Assembly (NCBI GenBank): GCA_030324005.1
Contig: JARDVH010000157.1
Location: 11,953,525-12,014,407 of the forward strand
Length of the DNA: 60,883 nucleotides
Reading direction: 5' to 3'
Source: Negaprion brevirostris
Lineage: Eukaryota
Shown here piece by piece: positions 16,494-60,883 of this stretch. The translations under genes were made by a program, and so were the position numbers. Positions within the stretch are counted from its first letter, which is position 1. The number at the start of each line of letters is the position of its first letter. The notes under the pieces were generated by a model. That model was not told where the DNA came from, made no database searches, and saw only the letters and a list, made by a program, of their open reading frames with translations.

Positions 16494-17914
16494 AAACATT
16501 TTCTTTACAATGTAGCTGCTACATTTAAAAGAATGGTAAGTGTGATTTATTTTTTCTACTTCACCAGCTAATTTTCATAGATTTACTAAGTACAAGGAAG
16601 AAGCCTTCAGACCATCATAGCAGTAGCCAGGTTTTGAATGCATTTCCGTTTCCCTTTAGCCCACCCCATAGCATTATTGCAAATTTCCCAATACTTGGAG
16701 GCACAGGTAACCAATGTTCTTTCATTCCTTATCTAAGTGACAATTATATAGTTGTCAGCCGAAACTGTGAATACTGCTAGATCAGTTAGACTGGGGCAGT
16801 CTAATACAGTCCAACAAAAATCACTGGTGATCCAGTGCCGAAGTTCTGGCCTCACTAATATGGAGGCACAGAGGCCACTGGAGCACCCATAGCATCATGC
16901 AGTCTACAAGTAAAAGAGGATGGGTGCTGTGTTTGAGTGGAACAATTTTGTATCCACTTGATCTGAGTGGCTAACTATCACCCTGGACATAAACACAGTG
17001 CCTTATAGCTTCTTAACAAAATCAGAGATACCTCAAAGTGTCTCTAATCAGGCAGTCTCAGGTAGTTAGATAGATACGATGGTAAAACAATTGCCCAATA
17101 TGCATACATTGCATTCTTCACACATCAAGGCAATGTGATGAATGGGTTGCTGATATGAATGTAGTCCTGTAAGTAAGACTTGGTAGAGACGTGGGCAGAG
17201 AAAATGAACAATTAATACACCATATATTTGAATGTGGTCGCCCTGGTTGGATGAAAGCATGAAAGTTGAATGCTTTATTCCCAATCTGTGATGAGTTAGC
17301 TGGTGTCCACTGGAGCTGCAGAGCAAGCACTTCACATTCTCAAGATACTGGGTTGGAGAAACCAGGCTCAGGTTTGCTGTTTTTCATCTTAAACCAGTGA
17401 ATACACGTCCCACACCTCAAAATCTTCAAAAGTGTATCTGACTAAACATCCAGTGATAATGTTCAGACTGTTATGCTTTTCTTCAGCCTCTCCTCGAATG
17501 AGCAAACAGGCCGGTGAAACTATCAAGTTGTGAACAAGTGGAGCAATTGTTGGCACACTGGAAGGCATTTGTAGATTTGTATCAGGAGTGAGTCAATGCC
17601 TTCAAGGGAAGTGAGGATGGGAGAAGACTGGTGGAGGAAAAAAATCAAACCATCCACTGATTAATTTTCTGGTTGGTAAAGTGTGATTTACCATGGCAAA
17701 TATAGGATACAACTTCAATTTATTTTACTTCATTCAAAAGGAAATTGAAAACATGTTTCCTAAACACAGAATGCAGTGTTAGAATTCCTGCCAAAACAAT
17801 ATTTCATCACATGCAACATCACATTCACCTCCACTCACTATTATTTGATCACTCAGCTCCTGATCTCATTACAATCTTGATCCAAACATAGACAAAAGAT
17901 CTGAACTCAAGATA

Positions 17915-18750
17915 CAAAGATGTGTAGAGGGACAGGTAGTATTGAGGAAGCAGATGGAATACAATGTAGAAAAGTGTGAGGTAATGCATTTTGGAAGGAG
18001 GAATCGAGGCATTGACTATTTTCTAAATGGGAAAATGCTTAAGAAATCAAAAATGCAAAGGGACTTGGGAGTCATTTTTCAAGATTCACTTAAGGTAAAC
18101 ATGCAGGTTCAGTTAGCAGATAAGAAGGCAAATGCAATGTTCGCATTCATGTTGAGAGGGCTAGAATACAAGAGCAGGGATGTACTTCTGATGCTGTATA
18201 AGGCTCTGGTCAGACCCCATTTGGAGTATTGTGAGCAGTTTTGGCCCCATATCTAAGAAAGGATGCGCTGGCCTTGGAAAGGGTCCAGGGGATGTTGACA
18301 AGACTGACCCCTGGAATGAAGAGCTTGCCATATAAGGTACGGTTGAGAACTCTGGGTCTGTACTCATTGGAGTTTAGTAAGATGAGGAGGGGATCTTATT
18401 GAAACTTATAGGACACTACGAGGCCTGGGCAATTTGGAGAGGATGTTTCCACTAAGTAGAAAAAACTAGAACCAGAGGACACAATCTCAGACTAAAGGGA
18501 CGATCTTTTAAAACAGATATGAGGAGNNNNNNNNNNNNNNNNNNGTGGAACTCTGCCGCAGAAGGCTGTGGAGGCCAGGTCATTGAGTGCCTTTAAGACA
18601 GAGGTAGATAGGTTCTTGATTGATAAGGGAATCACGGAAATGAGAAAATGGCAGGAGAATGGGAAGGAGAAAAAAATCAGCCATGATTGAATGGCGGAGC
18701 AGACTCAATGGTCCGAGTGGCCTAATTCTGCTCCTATGTCTTATGGCCTT
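17915..18750 (+). mobile_element. HER1/CR1 LINE 3' part nested in family-B LINE
   Basis: ORF 17942-18256 QMEYNVEKCEVMHFGRRN...LYKALVRPHLEYCEQFW. Confidence 0.9.
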
Positions 18751-22765: not shown

Positions 22766-25176
22766 GCTTGTTCAGTGGCTGGTACATACGAACTTCAATC
22801 GGGACACACTTGTTCATCACCTGAAAGACTTCAGTTCTGTCACATTCCTCAGCTCTGGCAGTCCTACATTAACTTTCACCTTATCTTCAAGGGGATGCAA
22901 TCCTTTGCATCCACTTTCAACCTGAGGTATGCAATCTCTTCATCTTGGAAAACACATTTCTCCTGTTTCAATTGTAAACTGGCTTCCTTAACTCTCTTCA
23001 CAACCTCTTCCAGGTTAGCCTCATGTTCTTCAGGAGATGCGCCTGTAATCCCCACTTTGGGGATTCCCTGTAACAGGCTGTCCATAGTGCATTGAGAAAT
23101 GGTGCAAGCTGACGGGACACTGAATGGCAGTCTGGTGTACTGATCTAACCCCTTGTGGGTCCTCTTCCAATTCCAACTCAAGTAAATTTTAGCTTTAACC
23201 CGCTTTCATTCAATCAAGTTCTCTTTTGAACACCTCCTGACATTTACGCAGGAGTTCCTGGAATCCTCCATCCTGGATTTTGAATATTTCAGCTAGTCCA
23301 GTTTTATTTGTTCAATCACTATAATGGGCAGCTGAATAGGCTGGCTACTGTACGATACCAACACAGAGGTTGGCTCCAATATTCTTAATGTTTCTCCTGC
23401 ATAGGTCCTCAAGTTAGCTTCTGAACGGCTAAGGCTTACGAGCTCTTGTCTCTTCTGGAGGTGCTTGAATGTCTTTTCCCCGATGATGGTCACAACCCCA
23501 CCAGTGTCAACGTCCACATTTGGGGGCACCATTAGGTCAATCTGTATAGGTGGTACCTTGCTGAGTTGAATTTGATTGAGTGTGTAAGCCTCGGATCTTT
23601 CCTTTAGTTTCTCTAAAAGCTTTTTTACAGGGGTTGTACTAATTGTTCCTTTCTCGGGGGGTATTTTATGCAGCCTGCCTAACTGTATGCCTAGCTTGCA
23701 GATAACCCTTCTTTTTACATAAAAACAGACATAATTGCTGGAACTTTACCGCCAAGGGGTGGGTGCTGTTTACAGAACAGAATTCCCTGTTGACCGTGGA
23801 GGGGATTTTATGAGCCTCACCCAAGCGAGGTCACAAAATACTGGCCAATTTCTGTTTTGGCATGTCTCTTGGGGGTGGGGTCTTCCCCGACACCTAAAGC
23901 ACANNNNNNNNNNNNNNNNNNNNNNNNNNNNNNNNNNNNNNNNNNNNNNNNNNNNNNNNNNNNNNNNNNNNNNNNNNNNNNNNNNNNNNNNNNNNNNNNN
24001 NNNCTCAGACCCTGATGCTGAATAACTCTTTTTCAGGCTCTGCTGCAGTTCCTTGCAGTAATCGTTTCCCAACACAACGTGTTCATCTCATTCTGCACGC
24101 CTGGCAGCTCATATATGCCTTGCTCAGCACACTCAATTACTTGGACTATCTCCACTGCATTCTCCAGATTTTTTTTCCAGCCAGCAGCTTCTTTTGGGTA
24201 AAGTCAAAATATTGCAGATGGTGAATCTGAAACAAAAACAGAAAATGCTGTAAAATCTCAGCAGGTCTGACAGCATCTGTGGAGAGAGAATAGAGGTAAA
24301 ATTTTCAGTCAGGATGACCCTTTAGCTCTATTCTTCCCCACAGATGCTGTCAGATCTGCTGAGATTTTCCAGCATTTTCAGTTTTTTTTGACTGTTGGGT
24401 TTGTTGATCCTACATGCTAAACAATCCGTCAACATGTCTCCCAACGAAGGCCCAAACTCACAGTGCTCTGCCCGCTGTCAAAATCTAGCGATGAAGCCAG
24501 AGGCTGATTCTTCTGGCTCTCTGACTGCAGAATGAGATTTGTATCTGCATAATTACAGAAGGCTGGGGGTTGTAATGCTCCTTAACCAAATTTACTAGCT
24601 GTTTGAAAGTTTTTGTGTCTGGAGCTTCAGGTGAGGTTAAGTTCCTCACTAGGTTGTAAGTCTGTGGGCTATCGACTGTAAGCAATTTCACCTTTTGTTT
24701 CTCCTCAACTGCTATTTTGTTTGCCATGAAGAAATGCTGCAGCTTTTCAATATATTGCCCTAACCAACAATTTCAGGGTCAAATGGTTCTATCTTCCCAA
24801 ATAATGGCATCTGGGATGAAAGCTTTCTCTTTTTTGCTCTTTGACTTAGACTTTCCTCCCCCTCCAATTCTGCACTGTGGGCTCTTAACAATTGACCCAG
24901 TCCCATCACCAGTGTAATAATCCAAGGCAACCTGAAGTGGCAAACAATTAACTACAAGGTTTATTAATAATAAGAATTATATACATGAAGAGTTCAATAG
25001 CAGACTCAAACAGTTCTACTCCTAACAGCATCTTAACTCTAGCTGAAGCTCTTCAGTCACAGGACTGCTCACCCTCCTTCCCAGTTGGCTCAGTTTCACA
25101 CGCTTGGTCAGGTTGGCTCCTGTATGGTCATGTAGGCCCGTGAAGGATTGCCCCTTAAAGGAGCCATGCTACCACA
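22765..25176 (-). mobile_element. Ty3/Gypsy retrotransposon remnant: 5' LTR (24913-25176), PBS, gag, protease, deleted RT
   Basis: LTR TG...CA then TGGTGATGGG PBS; gag MANKIAVEEKQKVKLL...KEHYNPQP; Zn knuckle CFRCRGRPHPQETC; protease DVDTGG; RT YTRLPFSVPSA. Confidence 0.9.
24203..24390. mobile_element. Palindromic Penelope-like-derived element inserted in gag
   Basis: Inverted arms AAATCTCAGCAGGTCTGACAGCATCTGTGG / CCACAGATGCTGTCAGATCTGCTGAGATTT. Confidence 0.75.
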
Positions 25177-40410: not shown

Positions 40411-41107
40411 TGTGTTACTTTTAACACTGCTGGATAGAGACCGCTACACATTGCATTCTACTCTAAATCTATCCAAAGAACAAAAAAAGACTGCAGAAAT
40501 CTTGAAAGCTTTGGAGACACATTTTGAATCCCAAGTGAACATAACTTATGGACGATGTGTGTTCAATATTAGGAATCTAGGTGAAAAAGAGTCCATTGAC
40601 CATTATGTGACTGTGGTGACATAATCAGAATCATGTGAATTTGGGCTATTAAACAGAAATCTCATTAAAGATAGAATTGTCATAAGTATAAGAGATCCAA
40701 CAGTGAGAATATGTCTACTGAAAGAGGAGAAACTTATTCGCAAGAAAGTATTAGACATATGCAGAAGTTCAGAGATCATAAAGCATCAGTTAGAACACAT
40801 ACATGGCAGAAAGACAGCAGAGGAGTACAAATTTATGTTGACAGAGTTTGGATTCTTACCTGGAGAATATCATCTCAAAGTAGATGAGAGTGTAGGACTA
40901 ATTCAGCAACTACCAAGAAATGGGCCAGCTGCCCTCAAATCAAGCCTAAAAAGCAAAATAGAAGAGCTGGAAAAAAAGAGAATAATCAAGAAAGTGACAA
41001 CTCCTACAGACTGGATTAGCATGGTAGCAATGAAACAGCCTGGAAAGCTGAGAGTATGCTTAAACCCAGAGGATCTAAATCACTGAAGAAATCTCACTAT
41101 CCCATTC

Positions 41108-54950: not shown

Positions 54951-55889
54951 GATGAGGCAGTCTTCTAATACAGTTTACTGTTCTGCTATACCTAATGTTC
55001 CTGATATGAGAATGTATCGCATTTCTCAGGGCTTACATTCCTTCTTTCTAATAACACAAAATGAATGATTGCTCACAGTCCCCACAAGTCCCAGCCCTTC
55101 AAATTCCCAAGAATCAAGTTGTGCCAAAATTGGAAATTGCTAACAAGTCTTTCATAAGACCAGGTTTCTTCAACCCTTATTGAAGTAGTTGCCCCTTGAC
55201 CTTGAGCAGAAAATTATTACTGAATTCTTTAAAGCTATTTAAAGAGAGAAGAAATCTTGTGATGAGGCCAAAGTGTTAACAAATTATTTCTGAAGGCCCC
55301 CCCTTTCTTGGTTGATGTGATTGGAGAGAATGAACCATGATGTTTTCTTCCCATCATCCATCATTAGCTTCTAATACTGACAGAGGGTTAAGTAGCATGC
55401 TTGTGTGTCTGTCGTCCAGACATACAGACAGGGTGTCTCACTCAGCATGTCCATGTTAGCATTTATTTTTGAGAGGCAAAAGAAGCTGAGCAAGGAAGCC
55501 AAAAGGGCTCGCATTGGAGCTGCATGTTTGTTTTTTTGTGTGGAAGCATTAGGGAAAATGCAAACAGCATAGAGGTGCTAAAAGTATTGAGATCAACTGA
55601 GATCAACATTAAACTGTCTGCCACGTTCACCTTTAATGACAGTTGAATCTGAGCCTCATCTGTATTAAACTAATAAACTGTTTTTGTTACATGTTTCCAA
55701 ATCTGTAACAAGAAAGCTCACTTGGCAGAAATTCATGCTGAAATATTTGGATATGCCAATTGTTGTGGCCTCAGCCGTCTTCAGACATATTTATAGATCT
55801 ATTTTATACTGCAGACATAGAGGAAAGAATTGCACTTTGAAGAAGGGAATTGGACAGAAGAAAGGAGGAGAACATTGGGCTAATCATTG

Positions 55890-56288
55890 AGATTTCCAGT
55901 ACAGCTACAACATTGACATCAATAAACCAGAGTGGAAAATTGCCCAGGTATGTCCTGTACATAAAAAGCAGGACAAATCCACCAGGCCAATTACTGCCCC
56001 ATCGTCTACTCCCGATCATCAACAAAGTGATGGGAAGTGTCATTGACAGTGCCATCAAATGGTTCTGACTCAGCAATAATTTGTCCACTGATGCTCAGTT
56101 TGGATTCTGCCAAGGTCACTCAGCTCCTTACCTCATTACAGACTTGGCCCAGACATGGATAAAAGAGCTGAACTCCAGAGGTGAGATGAGGGTGACTGCT
56201 CTTGACGTCAAGGCAAAATCTGAGCAAATACGGCATCAAGGAGCCCTAGATAAACTGAAGTTAATGGGAATCAGAGAAAAAAATTCTC
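55890..56288 (+). mobile_element. Family-B LINE RT, left half (continues at 60335)
   Basis: WKIAQVCPVHKKQDKS; QFGFCQGHSAPYLITDLAQTWIKELNSRGEMRVTALDVK. Confidence 0.88.
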
Positions 56289-56550
56289 TGTAATGATGCA
56301 CACTTATAGACTTCGTCAGGAACACAAAAACTATATATTAAAAATGAAAAACTGTACAGATGCCTGCACCCCCCTCCCCCACAGCTGCACTGGAGCAGCC
56401 CACCAACTAGCCCCTGCATGTCTTCAAACTGTCTTCTGCCTAAGAAAGGACTCCACTCCCTGGGTGATTGCCCACTTTCAACCTCAATTGATCCCTCAAG
56501 TCAGATGACCGTCTTCTGCTTTGTTGATCTTAAAAGAGACAATCACTACA
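56289..56550 (-). repeat. 3' LTR
   Basis: TGTAATGATG...CACTACA; colinear with 60082-60329; PPT adjacent. Confidence 0.88.
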
Positions 56551-57143
56551 TCCCTCCCCCATGAATTCCTTGATACAATTTTCAATAACCAAGTTACGCA
56601 AGCTCAAATTCTAAATAAACAAGTTGTAATTATAAATCGAGTCTTTGAGGAGTTCTTTTGTATTTTGTAGAGCGGTGTAATTCTGTAGCCTGAGATGCTT
56701 CCAAAGGATCAACATTAACAGGAATGGCAAATTACAGATATTTCTGCTGGCAGAGGCAGTTCGTTAATACTTTGTTCCATGAAGAGATCAGTTATGTGTA
56801 TAACAGATATATCTGGTACTTCAGTGCTTACGGGTTCAAAAACGTTTATTGATAGCAATATTGATTGCTAGAGCATCTCTCTACTCCCCCAGTGATCTAC
56901 ATGCTGAGGAATGATCCATCACTCCATGACTACTGGGTACGACAGGAGCCCAGTCACATTGATACTAATTCTAGGGATCTAAGTGATCCCCTACTGAAAT
57001 TTCATATCACAACACCATATCATATTGTGTATACAATATGGATTTTTAAAAATTTTTACAATGGTGATAGCTCATTGGTATCATTTTGAGGCTTGTGTGT
57101 TCAAACATAAACACTTAATGGTAGGCTTTAACTACGTACTATG

Positions 57144-58103
57144 AGGCAGAATTTTATGAGATTGATTCTAAGAGTCCAATTAGTGTGAAAATGGGAGAGC
57201 TCCTGATCTGTTTTTTGGGCGAGTTTTTACATCCAATCTTATGCACTTAGTCACTGAAAAAAAGTTCTAAACCGTTTCTAGCTGCTGCAAGCAGTGGGCT
57301 GGATTTAGTTCACCAGCCAGCAAGTAGAGGGAGAAACTGCACATATGTAGACCTTTGATCCTGCACATGATCAATAGCAACTGAAGGAGTCTGACAGACA
57401 GAACAAGTTGTCAGACCCCTGCTACAGCAGACAGCTACAACCAGTTCCCCCTACAACTGCCACAATTATGGGGGGCCCGTGGTCAATTACGAGCCCCTCA
57501 ATACATGGGTATTTAGCCCCCACCGCTCAGACCAATTGGGCTCCCCCTCTCCTGATCCAACTGTGACTGCAGAGTGGCAGTGGCTCTCTTTCCCCTCCTG
57601 ACCCAATCTTATGGCAGAGTGCCCAGCAGGGCCCGTCTCCCGATTGGGCTCTCCCTTCAAGCCAAACCTCCATAGGCCCTGCACCAAAGGCCCTACCCCG
57701 TAGGCCTTTCTCCCTATGCCCTGCCCCCAGGCTAGTGCCAATGTGCCTGCTGGGCAATGCCCAGGTGCCAAGGCCAGGCTGGTACTGCCCACGAGGCACC
57801 CCACCCTTTGCCCTCGGCTGTCCCAGGCGGCCTCAATGGCCTCCAGTTCCACCGGTGAGACAAATAGACTGTTCCCCGTTCATGGGGAGCAGGTGTTTTC
57901 CTCACCAGAGACAACGTCTCCTAGCGAGGCCATAAAAGCAAGTGAGCCCAGATGATTGAGTTCACTAACCATGTGGAAATCCAAATTCAAATAATTTATT
58001 TAGCCTCTCACTCATTTCCGGTGAGAGGCTGACCTCGTGATCCTGCTTTCTTGGCTCTTGCCCTGCCCATTGATGGGCAGGGTGAGCCAGTAAAATTCCA
58101 CCC
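57144..58103. mobile_element. Non-autonomous TIR element inside the LTR element
   Basis: TIRs AGGCAGAATTTTAT / GTAAAATTCCACCC. Confidence 0.65.
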
Positions 58104-58105
58104 AC

Positions 58106-58545
58106 AGCCTTACATGGAACTCTTCCAAACAGGCTTGCTGCTTTTCTATTCCCATGACCAATTCAGTAATCTTGTGCTGGCATATAATCTCAGTTTCTTT
58201 CTCTGTCTGAATTGCTGATTCTGCTGTCAATTTAAATTTTTATACCTCTTCAGATAATTTCTCATTGCCAAGCTTCCTTTTTCAAGTTCTTATTTTCCTG
58301 ATTCAATTCTTCACTGGACTTTTCTTACCTTCAGGTTACTTTAATGGAGTTCAGTTTATTCTCCATTGTCTCACGAAGTTCTCCTGAGCTTCATTTTGTC
58401 AATTTTTGCAACTTTTTAAATAAGTTGTCTATCAGTTGCTACACCTTGTTGTGTTAATGTCTCCTCTAGAGCTTTAAATCTTTTTGCTGATTCTTCTTTA
58501 TGTTCAATTGTTCCAAGCTTATTCTGAAGTCTTTAATTTTTTCCA
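58106..58545 (-). pseudogene. SYCP1: Intronless, decayed SYCP1-like coiled-coil fragment
   Basis: Translates as KALEETLTQ..., TMENKLNSIK...EKSSEELNQENKNLKK, (frameshift) KLGNEKLSEEV*KFKLTAESAIQTEKETEIICQHKITELVMGIEK; colinear with recalled human SYCP1 ENLQETETQ / EELQQENKALKK / EENLLEEVEKAKVIADEAVKLQKEIDKRCQHKIAEMVALMEK. Confidence 0.75.
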
Positions 58546-58558
58546 AGGTGAATCCATC

Positions 58559-58685
58559 AGGTGGGATTTTATGGCCTCGCTTATCCCGGAACAGTAAAAT
58601 CCCACCCAAGGTCAACGGACTGTCCTATTGTCCATCCCTTGCCTGCTCCGGTTCCCATGGTGGGTGGGGCAATAAAATTTTGGCC
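58559..58685. mobile_element. ~125-bp MITE
   Basis: AGGTGGGATTTTAT...ATAAAATTTTGGCC, ATC on both sides. Confidence 0.7.
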
Positions 58686-59443
58686 ATCATGTTCTTACTG
58701 GACATATACTTTTCACAAATGGAATCTTCACTTCTACTTGTCTTAACTTCAGCATTTTTGGCTTCATTGTGGGTTGGGTCTGTCTCTGATGAATGTTGAC
58801 TTGTTTCATTCTGCAATTCTCTCATTGTCCTTCATTTAGTCATTTAATGTTTTTCATTGCCTTCCTTCCGGGGTCTTTCATTATCATCCTCCTTTTGGAG
58901 TCTTTCACTGCCCTCCTGTAGTCTTTCATCATTGTTCATTCTTGGGGTCTTTCATGGTCTCCTAAGGTTTTCCATTGGTCTTCCCTGGGGTCTCATTGCC
59001 TCCTTTGATGTGTTTGAGGTCATTGTTGCTTATTGACATTTTTTGAGAATTACCCTTTAACTGAGGTCTTCTCCAAGTTTTCTGTCTATTGCTCTCTGTT
59101 CTTCTTGTGGTTGTTGCTTTAAATACATTGCAACATTAAATGTATTATCTTTTTAAATGCATTACTGCTTTAAGACTGTCAACTTTTTTTAAAACTGTCA
59201 GCAGCTGCCAGTTTTCTCTATGTGCTTTCCTGTGCTTTTGAAGTTTTGGCACGAGCCGGGCAGGTTCTCTTATTAACCTTTTTTTAAACTTTTAAAACTT
59301 CTTGTGTTTACAGACAGAAAGCTTCCTCAGCGAAATCTGTAGCATTTTTCCTCTCAGACCATTTGGATGCACTGGCTTCTCCTGTTAATTTCACTGCAAA
59401 ATCCAGCACTCTCAAGGCCCATGGGGCTGTTTTTGAAACTTCA

Positions 59444-59581
59444 TGGCTGGAATCTTATGGCCATTCACGCCAGTGGGATTTTCTGGTCCTGCTGCAGTGA
59501 ACAGTAGTTTGGCTGGGTGCCAAATTCTCTATCCCCGCTGCAGCAGCAGCAGAACATGAATGACCAGTAAGATCACAGCCT
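59444..59581. mobile_element. MITE
   Basis: GGCTGGAATCTTATGGCCATTCA / TGAATGACCAGTAAGATCACAGCC imperfect TIRs; flanks TCA/TTA. Confidence 0.7.
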
Positions 59582-60081
59582 TTAACTTATCTTCTACACA
59601 GATGAAGACTTTTTTAAAATCTGGAACTTGCTCACTGTAGTCTCTCAGTGCAGAGACCACTACCGTCCCACTCACCACCCGTAGACTCTGCTTGGATCGT
59701 GAGCCCAACAATCTCAGCCTCTTCACTTTCCTGCGCTCTGAAAACCAAGCTACAGCTCCTTGGGGCATTTTCTTTGTTTTAATTTGTCACTCAAAATACT
59801 ACTGTGTTCTCTTTGCTTTCTTATTAAGAAAAACAACTTGCAGCATCTCCTTGGCCTTTTTTAAAATTTATGTTCCACTTTTCCTTTGACACAAAATCTC
59901 GCTTCTAAGGGGTATTTTCCCTTCATTTTCTTTCTATATATTTCTAAACTTCTGACTGTACTGGCCAATTCAGTTTGCTCTGCATATTTTCCTCAGAGTC
60001 TGGTAATATCTTAACATCTCACACTCACACATCTCAAGCCTCAGGCAGTATCCTCATAATCCATTTTTTCCTTGCTGCCAA

Positions 60082-60329
60082 TATAATGATTCACATTTAT
60101 AGACTTTGTCAGGAACACAAAAATTATTTATTAACAAGAATAATTGTACAGAGGCCAGAAGCCCCCCGGCTGCCCCTGTCCGTACATGTCTTCCACATGT
60201 CTTCAGACTGTCTTCTGTCTAAGAGAAGACTCCACTCCCTGGGGTGATTACCCACTTTCAGTCCCAATTGGTCCCTCAAGCCAGCCAATCCTTTTCTGCT
60301 TTGTTGTCCTTAAAGGGACAATCACCACA
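60082..60329 (-). repeat. 5' LTR
   Basis: TATAATGATT...CACCACA; PBS adjacent on the minus strand. Confidence 0.88.
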
Positions 60330-60334
60330 ATCTC

Positions 60335-60883
60335 TATTAGTTGGAATTATATCTGGCATAAAGGAAGATGGTTGTGGCTCTTGGAGGTCAATCATCTCAG
60401 TCCCAGGACATCACTGCAATAGTTCCTCTGCAATAGGCCCTACCATCCTCAGCTGCTTCATTAATGACCTTTCTTCCATCGGAAGACCAGAAGTGGAGAT
60501 GTTTGCAGATGACTATCCATTGTTCAGCACCATTCATAACCCCTATGACCTTAAAGCAGTCCATCTTCCTATGCAACAAGACCTGGAAAATATTTGGGCT
60601 TGGGCTGATAAGTGGTAAGCAATATTCATACCACATAAGTGCTAGGCATTGACAATCTCCAAACGATAATCCAACCATCACCCCTTGACATTCAACGATA
60701 AAAGCAAATTACCACAGATGTTGGAATCTGAAACCAAAAGAGAAAATGCTGGAAAATCTCAGCGCCATATATAAGGAGAGGAAAGAGCTGATGTTTCGAA
60801 TCCAGAAGACTCTTTGTGAAATTCAATGATGTTACCTTTGCTGGATCCTTTTATCAATATCCTGGGGGTAATCATTGACCAGA
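60335..60883 (+). mobile_element. Family-B LINE RT, right half
   Basis: GPTILSCFINDLSSIGRPEVEMFADD...MQQDLENIWAWADKW. Confidence 0.9.
60700..60820 (-). mobile_element. Penelope-like-derived insertion with 10-bp TSD
   Basis: Flanked by ATTCAACGAT (60690-60699) and ATTCAATGAT (60821-60830); minus-strand GAGTC-TTCTG-GATTC-GAAAC. Confidence 0.75.

Follow-up and report, generated by a model that had tools for sequence, protein, structure and literature searches.

The window, by which we mean the whole stretch of 60,883 nucleotides that was analyzed, contains a non-autonomous LTR element of a family termed here B on the minus strand at 56289–60329. Both LTRs reported in an earlier note on this DNA are present, with the end of the left one corrected to 56550; the 3′ LTR occupies 56289–56550 (262 nt) and the 5′ LTR 60082–60329 (248 nt), and the two differ by 19% (K2P 0.22). 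The 5′ LTR terminates in TA, where most other copies have CA, and the element was counted among those with paired direct LTRs of the TG...CA form. A PBS that starts with TGG (60068–60081) adjoins the 5′ LTR, and a polypurine tract (56551–56560) precedes the 3′ LTR, as purine tracts do in other B copies. The element is bounded by a 5-bp TSD (56284–56288 and 60330–60334) with one mismatch, so the complete LTR architecture described earlier is confirmed. The element lies inside a LINE on the plus strand, as had also been proposed: the flanks at 55760–56283 and 60335–60700 match successive segments of the RVT_1 profile (11–99, E 0.006; 124–193, E 0.003; both under the curated cut-off), and another LINE copy bridges both.

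Between its LTRs, the element is a mosaic, all of it on the minus strand apart from three later inserts. From the PBS inwards, a B-specific 5′ interior (59221–60067), which contains insert C (59443–59581), is followed by sequence common to A and B copies, where A denotes a second LTR family. This common part contains 21–26-nt tandem repeats and has no Pfam match (58686–59220), is interrupted by insert B (58559–58685), and ends in a short piece beside the cargo start (58546–58558). The cargo (58134–58545) comes next, and then a short stretch (58104–58133) read as LTR-A, which a subfamily-shared deletion would have fused to the cargo, judging from L107, L117, and L118, where exon E8 passes directly into LTR-A. 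Insert A, with degenerate terminal inverted repeats (57144–58103), separates this stretch from the 3′ part of an internal LTR of the unrelated family A (57020–57143, left limit approximate), which matches both LTRs of the A-type copy L097 and reaches the LTR-A end. A B-specific 3′ interior without a Pfam match (56561–57019) completes the element. All three later inserts are missing in another copy, insert A in L107, and a joint found in three runs skips insert A. The reported lack of gag, protease, reverse transcriptase, and integrase was likewise upheld by Pfam in 12 minus-strand interior frames with the three inserts left out. Contigs from three runs match the element piecewise at approximately 95–99% identity, and none spans it whole. 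One contig of run X1 matches 56289–56834 at 98% from the LTR start, and no alignment with the flank is shown for the 338 letters with which it begins. Elsewhere in the window, ORFs at 40625–41086 (+), 23293–23745 (−), and 17864–18256 (+) resemble, by eye, pol or protease fragments of LTR elements and a LINE fragment.

The cargo is a copy of processed, that is, spliced, SYCP1 RNA. It matches Pfam SCP-1 with E 1.8e-7 and 30.1 bits (cut-off 23), its top PDB matches are the SYCP1 entries 4YTO and 6F63, and it is 64% identical to catshark SYCP1 over 45 amino acids (E 1e-10) in a match that crosses the E1/E2 boundary. It consists of the end of E1, the 5′ part of E2, E3, E4, E5, a few nucleotides of E6, the 3′ part of E7, and E8. 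Each of E2–E8 scores above all of its 200 shuffles, which E1 taken by itself fails to do, and E9–E11 are missing. An unrelated coiled coil was rejected as the identity of the cargo on the Pfam, PDB, catshark, and shuffle results. The three SYCP1 peptide blocks first noticed by eye are real, each in a different reading frame, and the segment is frameshifted and contains stops. The earlier claim that the SYCP1 gene had been captured therefore stands for processed SYCP1 sequence, of which approximately 410 nt from the middle of the gene are present, and not for the gene itself.

The host SYCP1 gene lies on the minus strand of C143, where 11 consecutive exons (E1–E11, 37,242,884 to 37,105,777) match the cargo of the family. 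These exons are spread over 137 kb, and the element copies fuse them without introns. Together they measure 919 nt, which with approximately 6 masked nucleotides at the end of E8 gives a unit of 925 nt. A search with E1 found a single E1 in the host gene, and the sequenced part of the 41-kb intron that separates E11 from E12 yielded no second one; about a quarter of this intron consists of N. In catshark SYCP1, E11 continues directly into E12, and no duplicated exon was found in the catshark and ray proteins. The present-day 5-kb intron flanks of E1 and E11 contain no inverted repeats that could pair (score 0). Some further observations concern the gene and its models. One of the SCP-1 matches is an N-terminal exon of host SYCP1, 96% identical to skate and catshark SYCP1, and this exon (L003:~1505) may use a GC splice donor. 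A catshark model has an internal repeat of approximately 35 amino acids, and one ray model is without the E11 stretch (P0007, P0011). The database ray model P0009 ends just past the exon equivalent to E2 and continues as a PF23055 domain; the predicted gene probably extends into an element located in an intron.

The cargo of other copies is more complete than that of the window, and its exons are in a permuted order. In long copies, it begins at approximately position 80 of E1, runs through E2 to E11, and then returns to E1 from position 1 to approximately 85. BLAST places E1 after E11 in 12 of 14 long copies. Among the 14 long loci, the E11–E1 join is an exact exon end and exon start in eight and is overlapped by a short deletion in five, and E1 is missing in one. 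This tally is biased, as 11 of the 14 long copies came from queries that spanned the junction or consisted of E1. Less biased support comes from profile-picked B-type loci, 8 of 26 of which retain E1 from position 46 (to 75–101) after E9. Among 54 copies, the 26 start pieces match E1 closely from position 80 onward and patchily from approximately 67, so that the start may lie as early as that; the 19 end pieces match E1 closely up to 84–91, after which identity drops. Start and stop are therefore at most approximately 25 nt apart, and the cargo amounts to one 925-nt turn plus at most that excess. No poly(A) tail is present, each cargo end being joined to element sequence, and 56 of the 57 SCP-1 matches fall within profile positions 525–769, the remaining one being the host gene. 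The copy in the window, a B member with further deletions, has lost the non-colinear junction, in which a donor is joined to an upstream acceptor, and has retained the cargo start in the middle of E1. Since the cargo makes one turn around a 925-nt back-spliced circle, the template is likely to have been a circular RNA and not a linear mRNA. The junction is rich in A and G, and hence it may include a microhomology of 2–3 nt.

A search of the 2.69-Gb genome with the SCP-1 profile gave 57 scored matches out of 349 candidates. At the DNA level, the cargo yielded 600 candidates, the 3′ interior 595, and the LTR 782; 40 from each search were scored, at 70–82% identity. The family probably comprises hundreds of decayed copies, an estimate that is based on these mostly unscored candidate counts. 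Twenty of the 57 profile matches were fetched with flanks, and 16 of them have a B-type LTR or 3′ interior and 4 have A-type parts only. The proposal that a cargo-bearing family had moved with SYCP1 is thus supported at all 20 loci. A separate, later processed-pseudogene insertion was rejected because element parts are present at every one of these loci, which were picked by the profile only. Secondary rounds of retrotransposition are recorded by nested shared deletions among the 57 distinct cargo-bearing places studied, and these give the order of deletions in the family. Locus L098 has the full cargo. Of 20 copies, A and B types together, in which it could be measured, 17 have an in-frame deletion of 45 nt. 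A deletion of 130 nt is absent from all 12 long copies and present in 20 of the 27 short ones that could be measured, and one of 229 nt occurs in 5 of 7; neither is a multiple of three. The deletion from E8 into LTR-A is common to the window, L107, L117, and L118.

Long copies are bounded by LTR-A, which is about 300 nt long, has TG...CA ends, and has its own PBS and PPT. LTR-A and LTR-B are no more similar than expected by chance (40 of 300 shuffles score equally high), and A and B are two separate LTR families. A 5-bp TSD with at most one mismatch is present in the window and in 3 of 10 other B copies, and TSDs were found at 2 of 15 lone LTR-A loci. The PBS forms look Gypsy-like; with no pol found in the frames scanned, the Gypsy-type label of the earlier note is no more than a candidate assignment. 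The interior common to A and B extends from approximately 59220 (window coordinates) to the cargo, and on the other side the B copies enclose LTR-A internally, through its end and beyond its AATAAA. Because the internal LTR-A extends past this signal, the RNA that A normally makes and polyadenylates was not what was copied in the step from A to B. A may have entered B by nesting of one element in the other with a later deletion, through a read-through transcript, or by recombination among intermediates of reverse transcription. Past the end of the internal LTR-A (window approximately 57005–57030; L041, L038, and L037) come TGG and a short piece of the LTR end in inverted orientation. This arrangement is similar to the beginning of A's PBS joined to a snap-back, and it may be a record of A's entry into B. 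Locally expanded tandem repeats of 0.6–1.1 kb lie within the A-type elements L036 and L098, and at L114 (C132:25.994–26.001 Mb), two host-gene exons that match bZIP_1 have the 5′ remnant of a B-type element close by.

The machinery and the parents of these elements were also sought. In 30 frames from nine other loci, Pfam returned no gag or pol match, only host bZIP and a repeat-driven Cornifin. No autonomous partner was present among 14 of the 40 scored matches to the B leader or 30 of 40 to LTR-A; a search by PBS pattern gave two matches, both decayed, and a search with the A leader gave 47 candidates. A cargo-free parent of A or B was not found among the loci fetched.

The cargo has decayed neutrally. 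Copies are 14–15% different from the host exons, and the private mismatch is 0.10–0.115 at every one of the three codon positions. Differences common to the long copies affect 41 of 743 sites, distributed over the codon positions as 11/12/18, with a slight third-position lean. Stops interrupt the aligned codons of 46 of 57 copies, one stop is common to 11 of 34 copies, and no intact retro-ORF is annotated among six shorter homologues. The check for an intact ORF under selection, which the earlier note had suggested, thus turned out against such an ORF: the cargo is a decayed neutral passenger and not a working gene. K2P values for LTR pairs are 0.17–0.43 in 10 further B copies, some of which were cut imperfectly, and 0.22–0.33 in four A copies. 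At six of the seven amino-acid sites that are derived in the host, most copies have the catshark state, and at three of the four that are derived in catshark, they have the host state; as these states are mixed, although the numbers are small, capture is placed near the host–catshark split. The database protein P0030 shares 84% identity with one B locus in particular, including its locus-specific tail, and is probably the same insertion in another organism. Sharks have slow substitution rates, and given such rates, the family is likely to be older than 100 million years.

We consider it probable, at approximately 0.75, that a circular RNA of 11 SYCP1 exons and 925 nt was captured by family A, passed to family B, and amplified as a passenger. 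The earlier suggestion that SYCP1 mRNA was captured by the element flanking it is then right about the processed SYCP1 sequence, but the template looks circular, and the first captor was an LTR family other than that of the window. SYCP1 is expressed in meiosis, and its RNA would for this reason have had access to the germ line. There, the back-spliced RNA would have been co-packaged with a family A element; the reverse transcriptase would have jumped onto the circle, copied one turn, and jumped back in a double template switch, as in the model of PMC5131818 but here with a circular template. It probably stopped after one turn because RNase H had degraded the template already copied or because a single nick had opened the circle. 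The A/SYCP1 chimera may have spread modestly as a non-autonomous A element before its 3′ part (interior, cargo, PPT, and whole 3′ LTR) entered an unrelated B element. This cargo-bearing B element would have lost two internal stretches, and its copies would have been amplified, probably to hundreds, by B-type machinery acting in trans. We infer the circular template, co-packaging, template switching, RNase H limit, germ-cell timing, and trans mobilization from the structure of the copies. The fuller picture of a complete germline circRNA fossil, one turn of which was copied in an LTR particle near the catshark split by template-switch capture and later relayed between families, has somewhat better than even odds.

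A linear template would also account for the junction if an ancestral tandem duplication of E1–E11, trans-splicing, or exon repetition had produced a linear E11–E1 RNA. A non-colinear junction is by itself no proof of a circle (PMC4897178), N gaps lie in the host intron past E11, and an internal repeat is present in another part of the protein in one catshark SYCP1 model. This explanation is nevertheless unlikely: a linear copy would start and end within approximately 25 nt on a 925-nt unit with a chance that we estimate at approximately 3–5%, and the duplicate exon is absent from the host sequence searched and from the catshark and ray proteins. It is more doubtful still that back-splicing played no part and that the exon order of a linear SYCP1 mRNA was shuffled when the reverse transcriptase switched templates within it. 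Switches at short microsimilarity are usual in LTR-mediated retroposition (PMC5131818), and the E11–E1 junction is A/G-rich, but such a switch must hit both an exon end and an exon start and also yield the one-turn length. Even taken together, the two linear-template explanations are improbable.

The cargo might instead have been kept for a product, either a coiled-coil fragment of central SYCP1 or an RNA decoy, that aided the element in meiotic cells. The cargo region does correspond to the SYCP1 fragment of PDB 4YTO and 6F63/6F64, copies that bear it are many, and the shared 45-nt deletion keeps the frame. A selected protein is, however, disfavored because frameshifting deletions and stops are shared and decay is even over the codon positions; the 130-nt deletion belongs to the very B family that expanded, and the six shorter homologues include no annotated intact frame. 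Selection for a product is accordingly a slight possibility, a shade below that of scrambling, and a meiotic benefit gained from the SYCP1 piece by an early A element has a slimmer chance yet.

Capture of an SYCP1 circle has several consequences. If the circRNA-fossil reading is true, the copies are direct structural evidence that LTR reverse transcriptases take up circRNAs by template switching, limited to one turn, and that cargo of this kind can pass from one LTR family to an unrelated one, and the SYCP1 E11–E1 circle should persist in shark testis. The element would also place a meiotic circRNA, with its exon makeup, at an early point in shark evolution. The intact element hallmarks and the one-turn length predict an LTR template-switch route that laboratory yeast Ty elements could be used to test. 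SYCP1-like repeats numbering in the hundreds can, moreover, confound the annotation, primer design, and RNA mapping of shark SYCP1. Neither SYCP1 capture nor a shark case was found in the literature searched, whose scope lay outside Repbase, Dfam, most subscription papers, and supplements; Repbase or Dfam may hold a named family for this element.

Host-RNA capture by LTR elements (PMC5131818, PMC4299795) and LTR-associated circRNA pseudogenes (PMC4897178) are already published. In LTR-mediated retroposition (PMC5131818), a partial host RNA likewise replaces the interior, and the chimera retrotransposes non-autonomously; the cases described there are young and of few copies, unlike the shark family, and a word search of the main text found neither “circ” nor “shark”. 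Crocodilian ERV4 elements (PMC4299795) provide another ancient LTR capture in a non-mammalian vertebrate followed by spread, with KIT-ligand and nectin3 mRNA as cargo. Their cargo has intact ORFs under purifying selection, and pol is present, whereas the shark cargo is permuted and frameshifted and pol is lacking; by the intact ORF and purifying selection that mark a functional captured gene of the CrocERV29 type, the shark cargo is not one. The Lokiretrovirus smc gene (PMC7947760) is also an acquired coiled-coil gene resembling that of a chromosome protein, but Lokiretrovirus is autonomous, with gag, pol, and env; that paper does not mention SYCP, SCP-1, or sharks, and a link to the shark cargo found no support. 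The closest precedent is the mouse circRFWD2 pseudogenes, of which there are 33–42 copies and whose mechanism was called mysterious (PMC4897178). They share with the shark cargo multiple copies, a back-splice junction, the lack of poly(A), and an adjoining LTR sequence, which in mouse is MMERVK10C-int. Unlike them, the shark circle lies inside complete LTR elements with PBS, PPT, and TSD, and its cargo comprises one full turn, passed through two LTR families, and comes from a cartilaginous fish. The route by which circRNAs are reverse transcribed into genomes, which the pseudogene paper left open, is where the shark family bears on that work. It differs from the published cases in carrying a whole one-turn circle in complete elements, in its relay between two families, in its large copy number, and in its great age.
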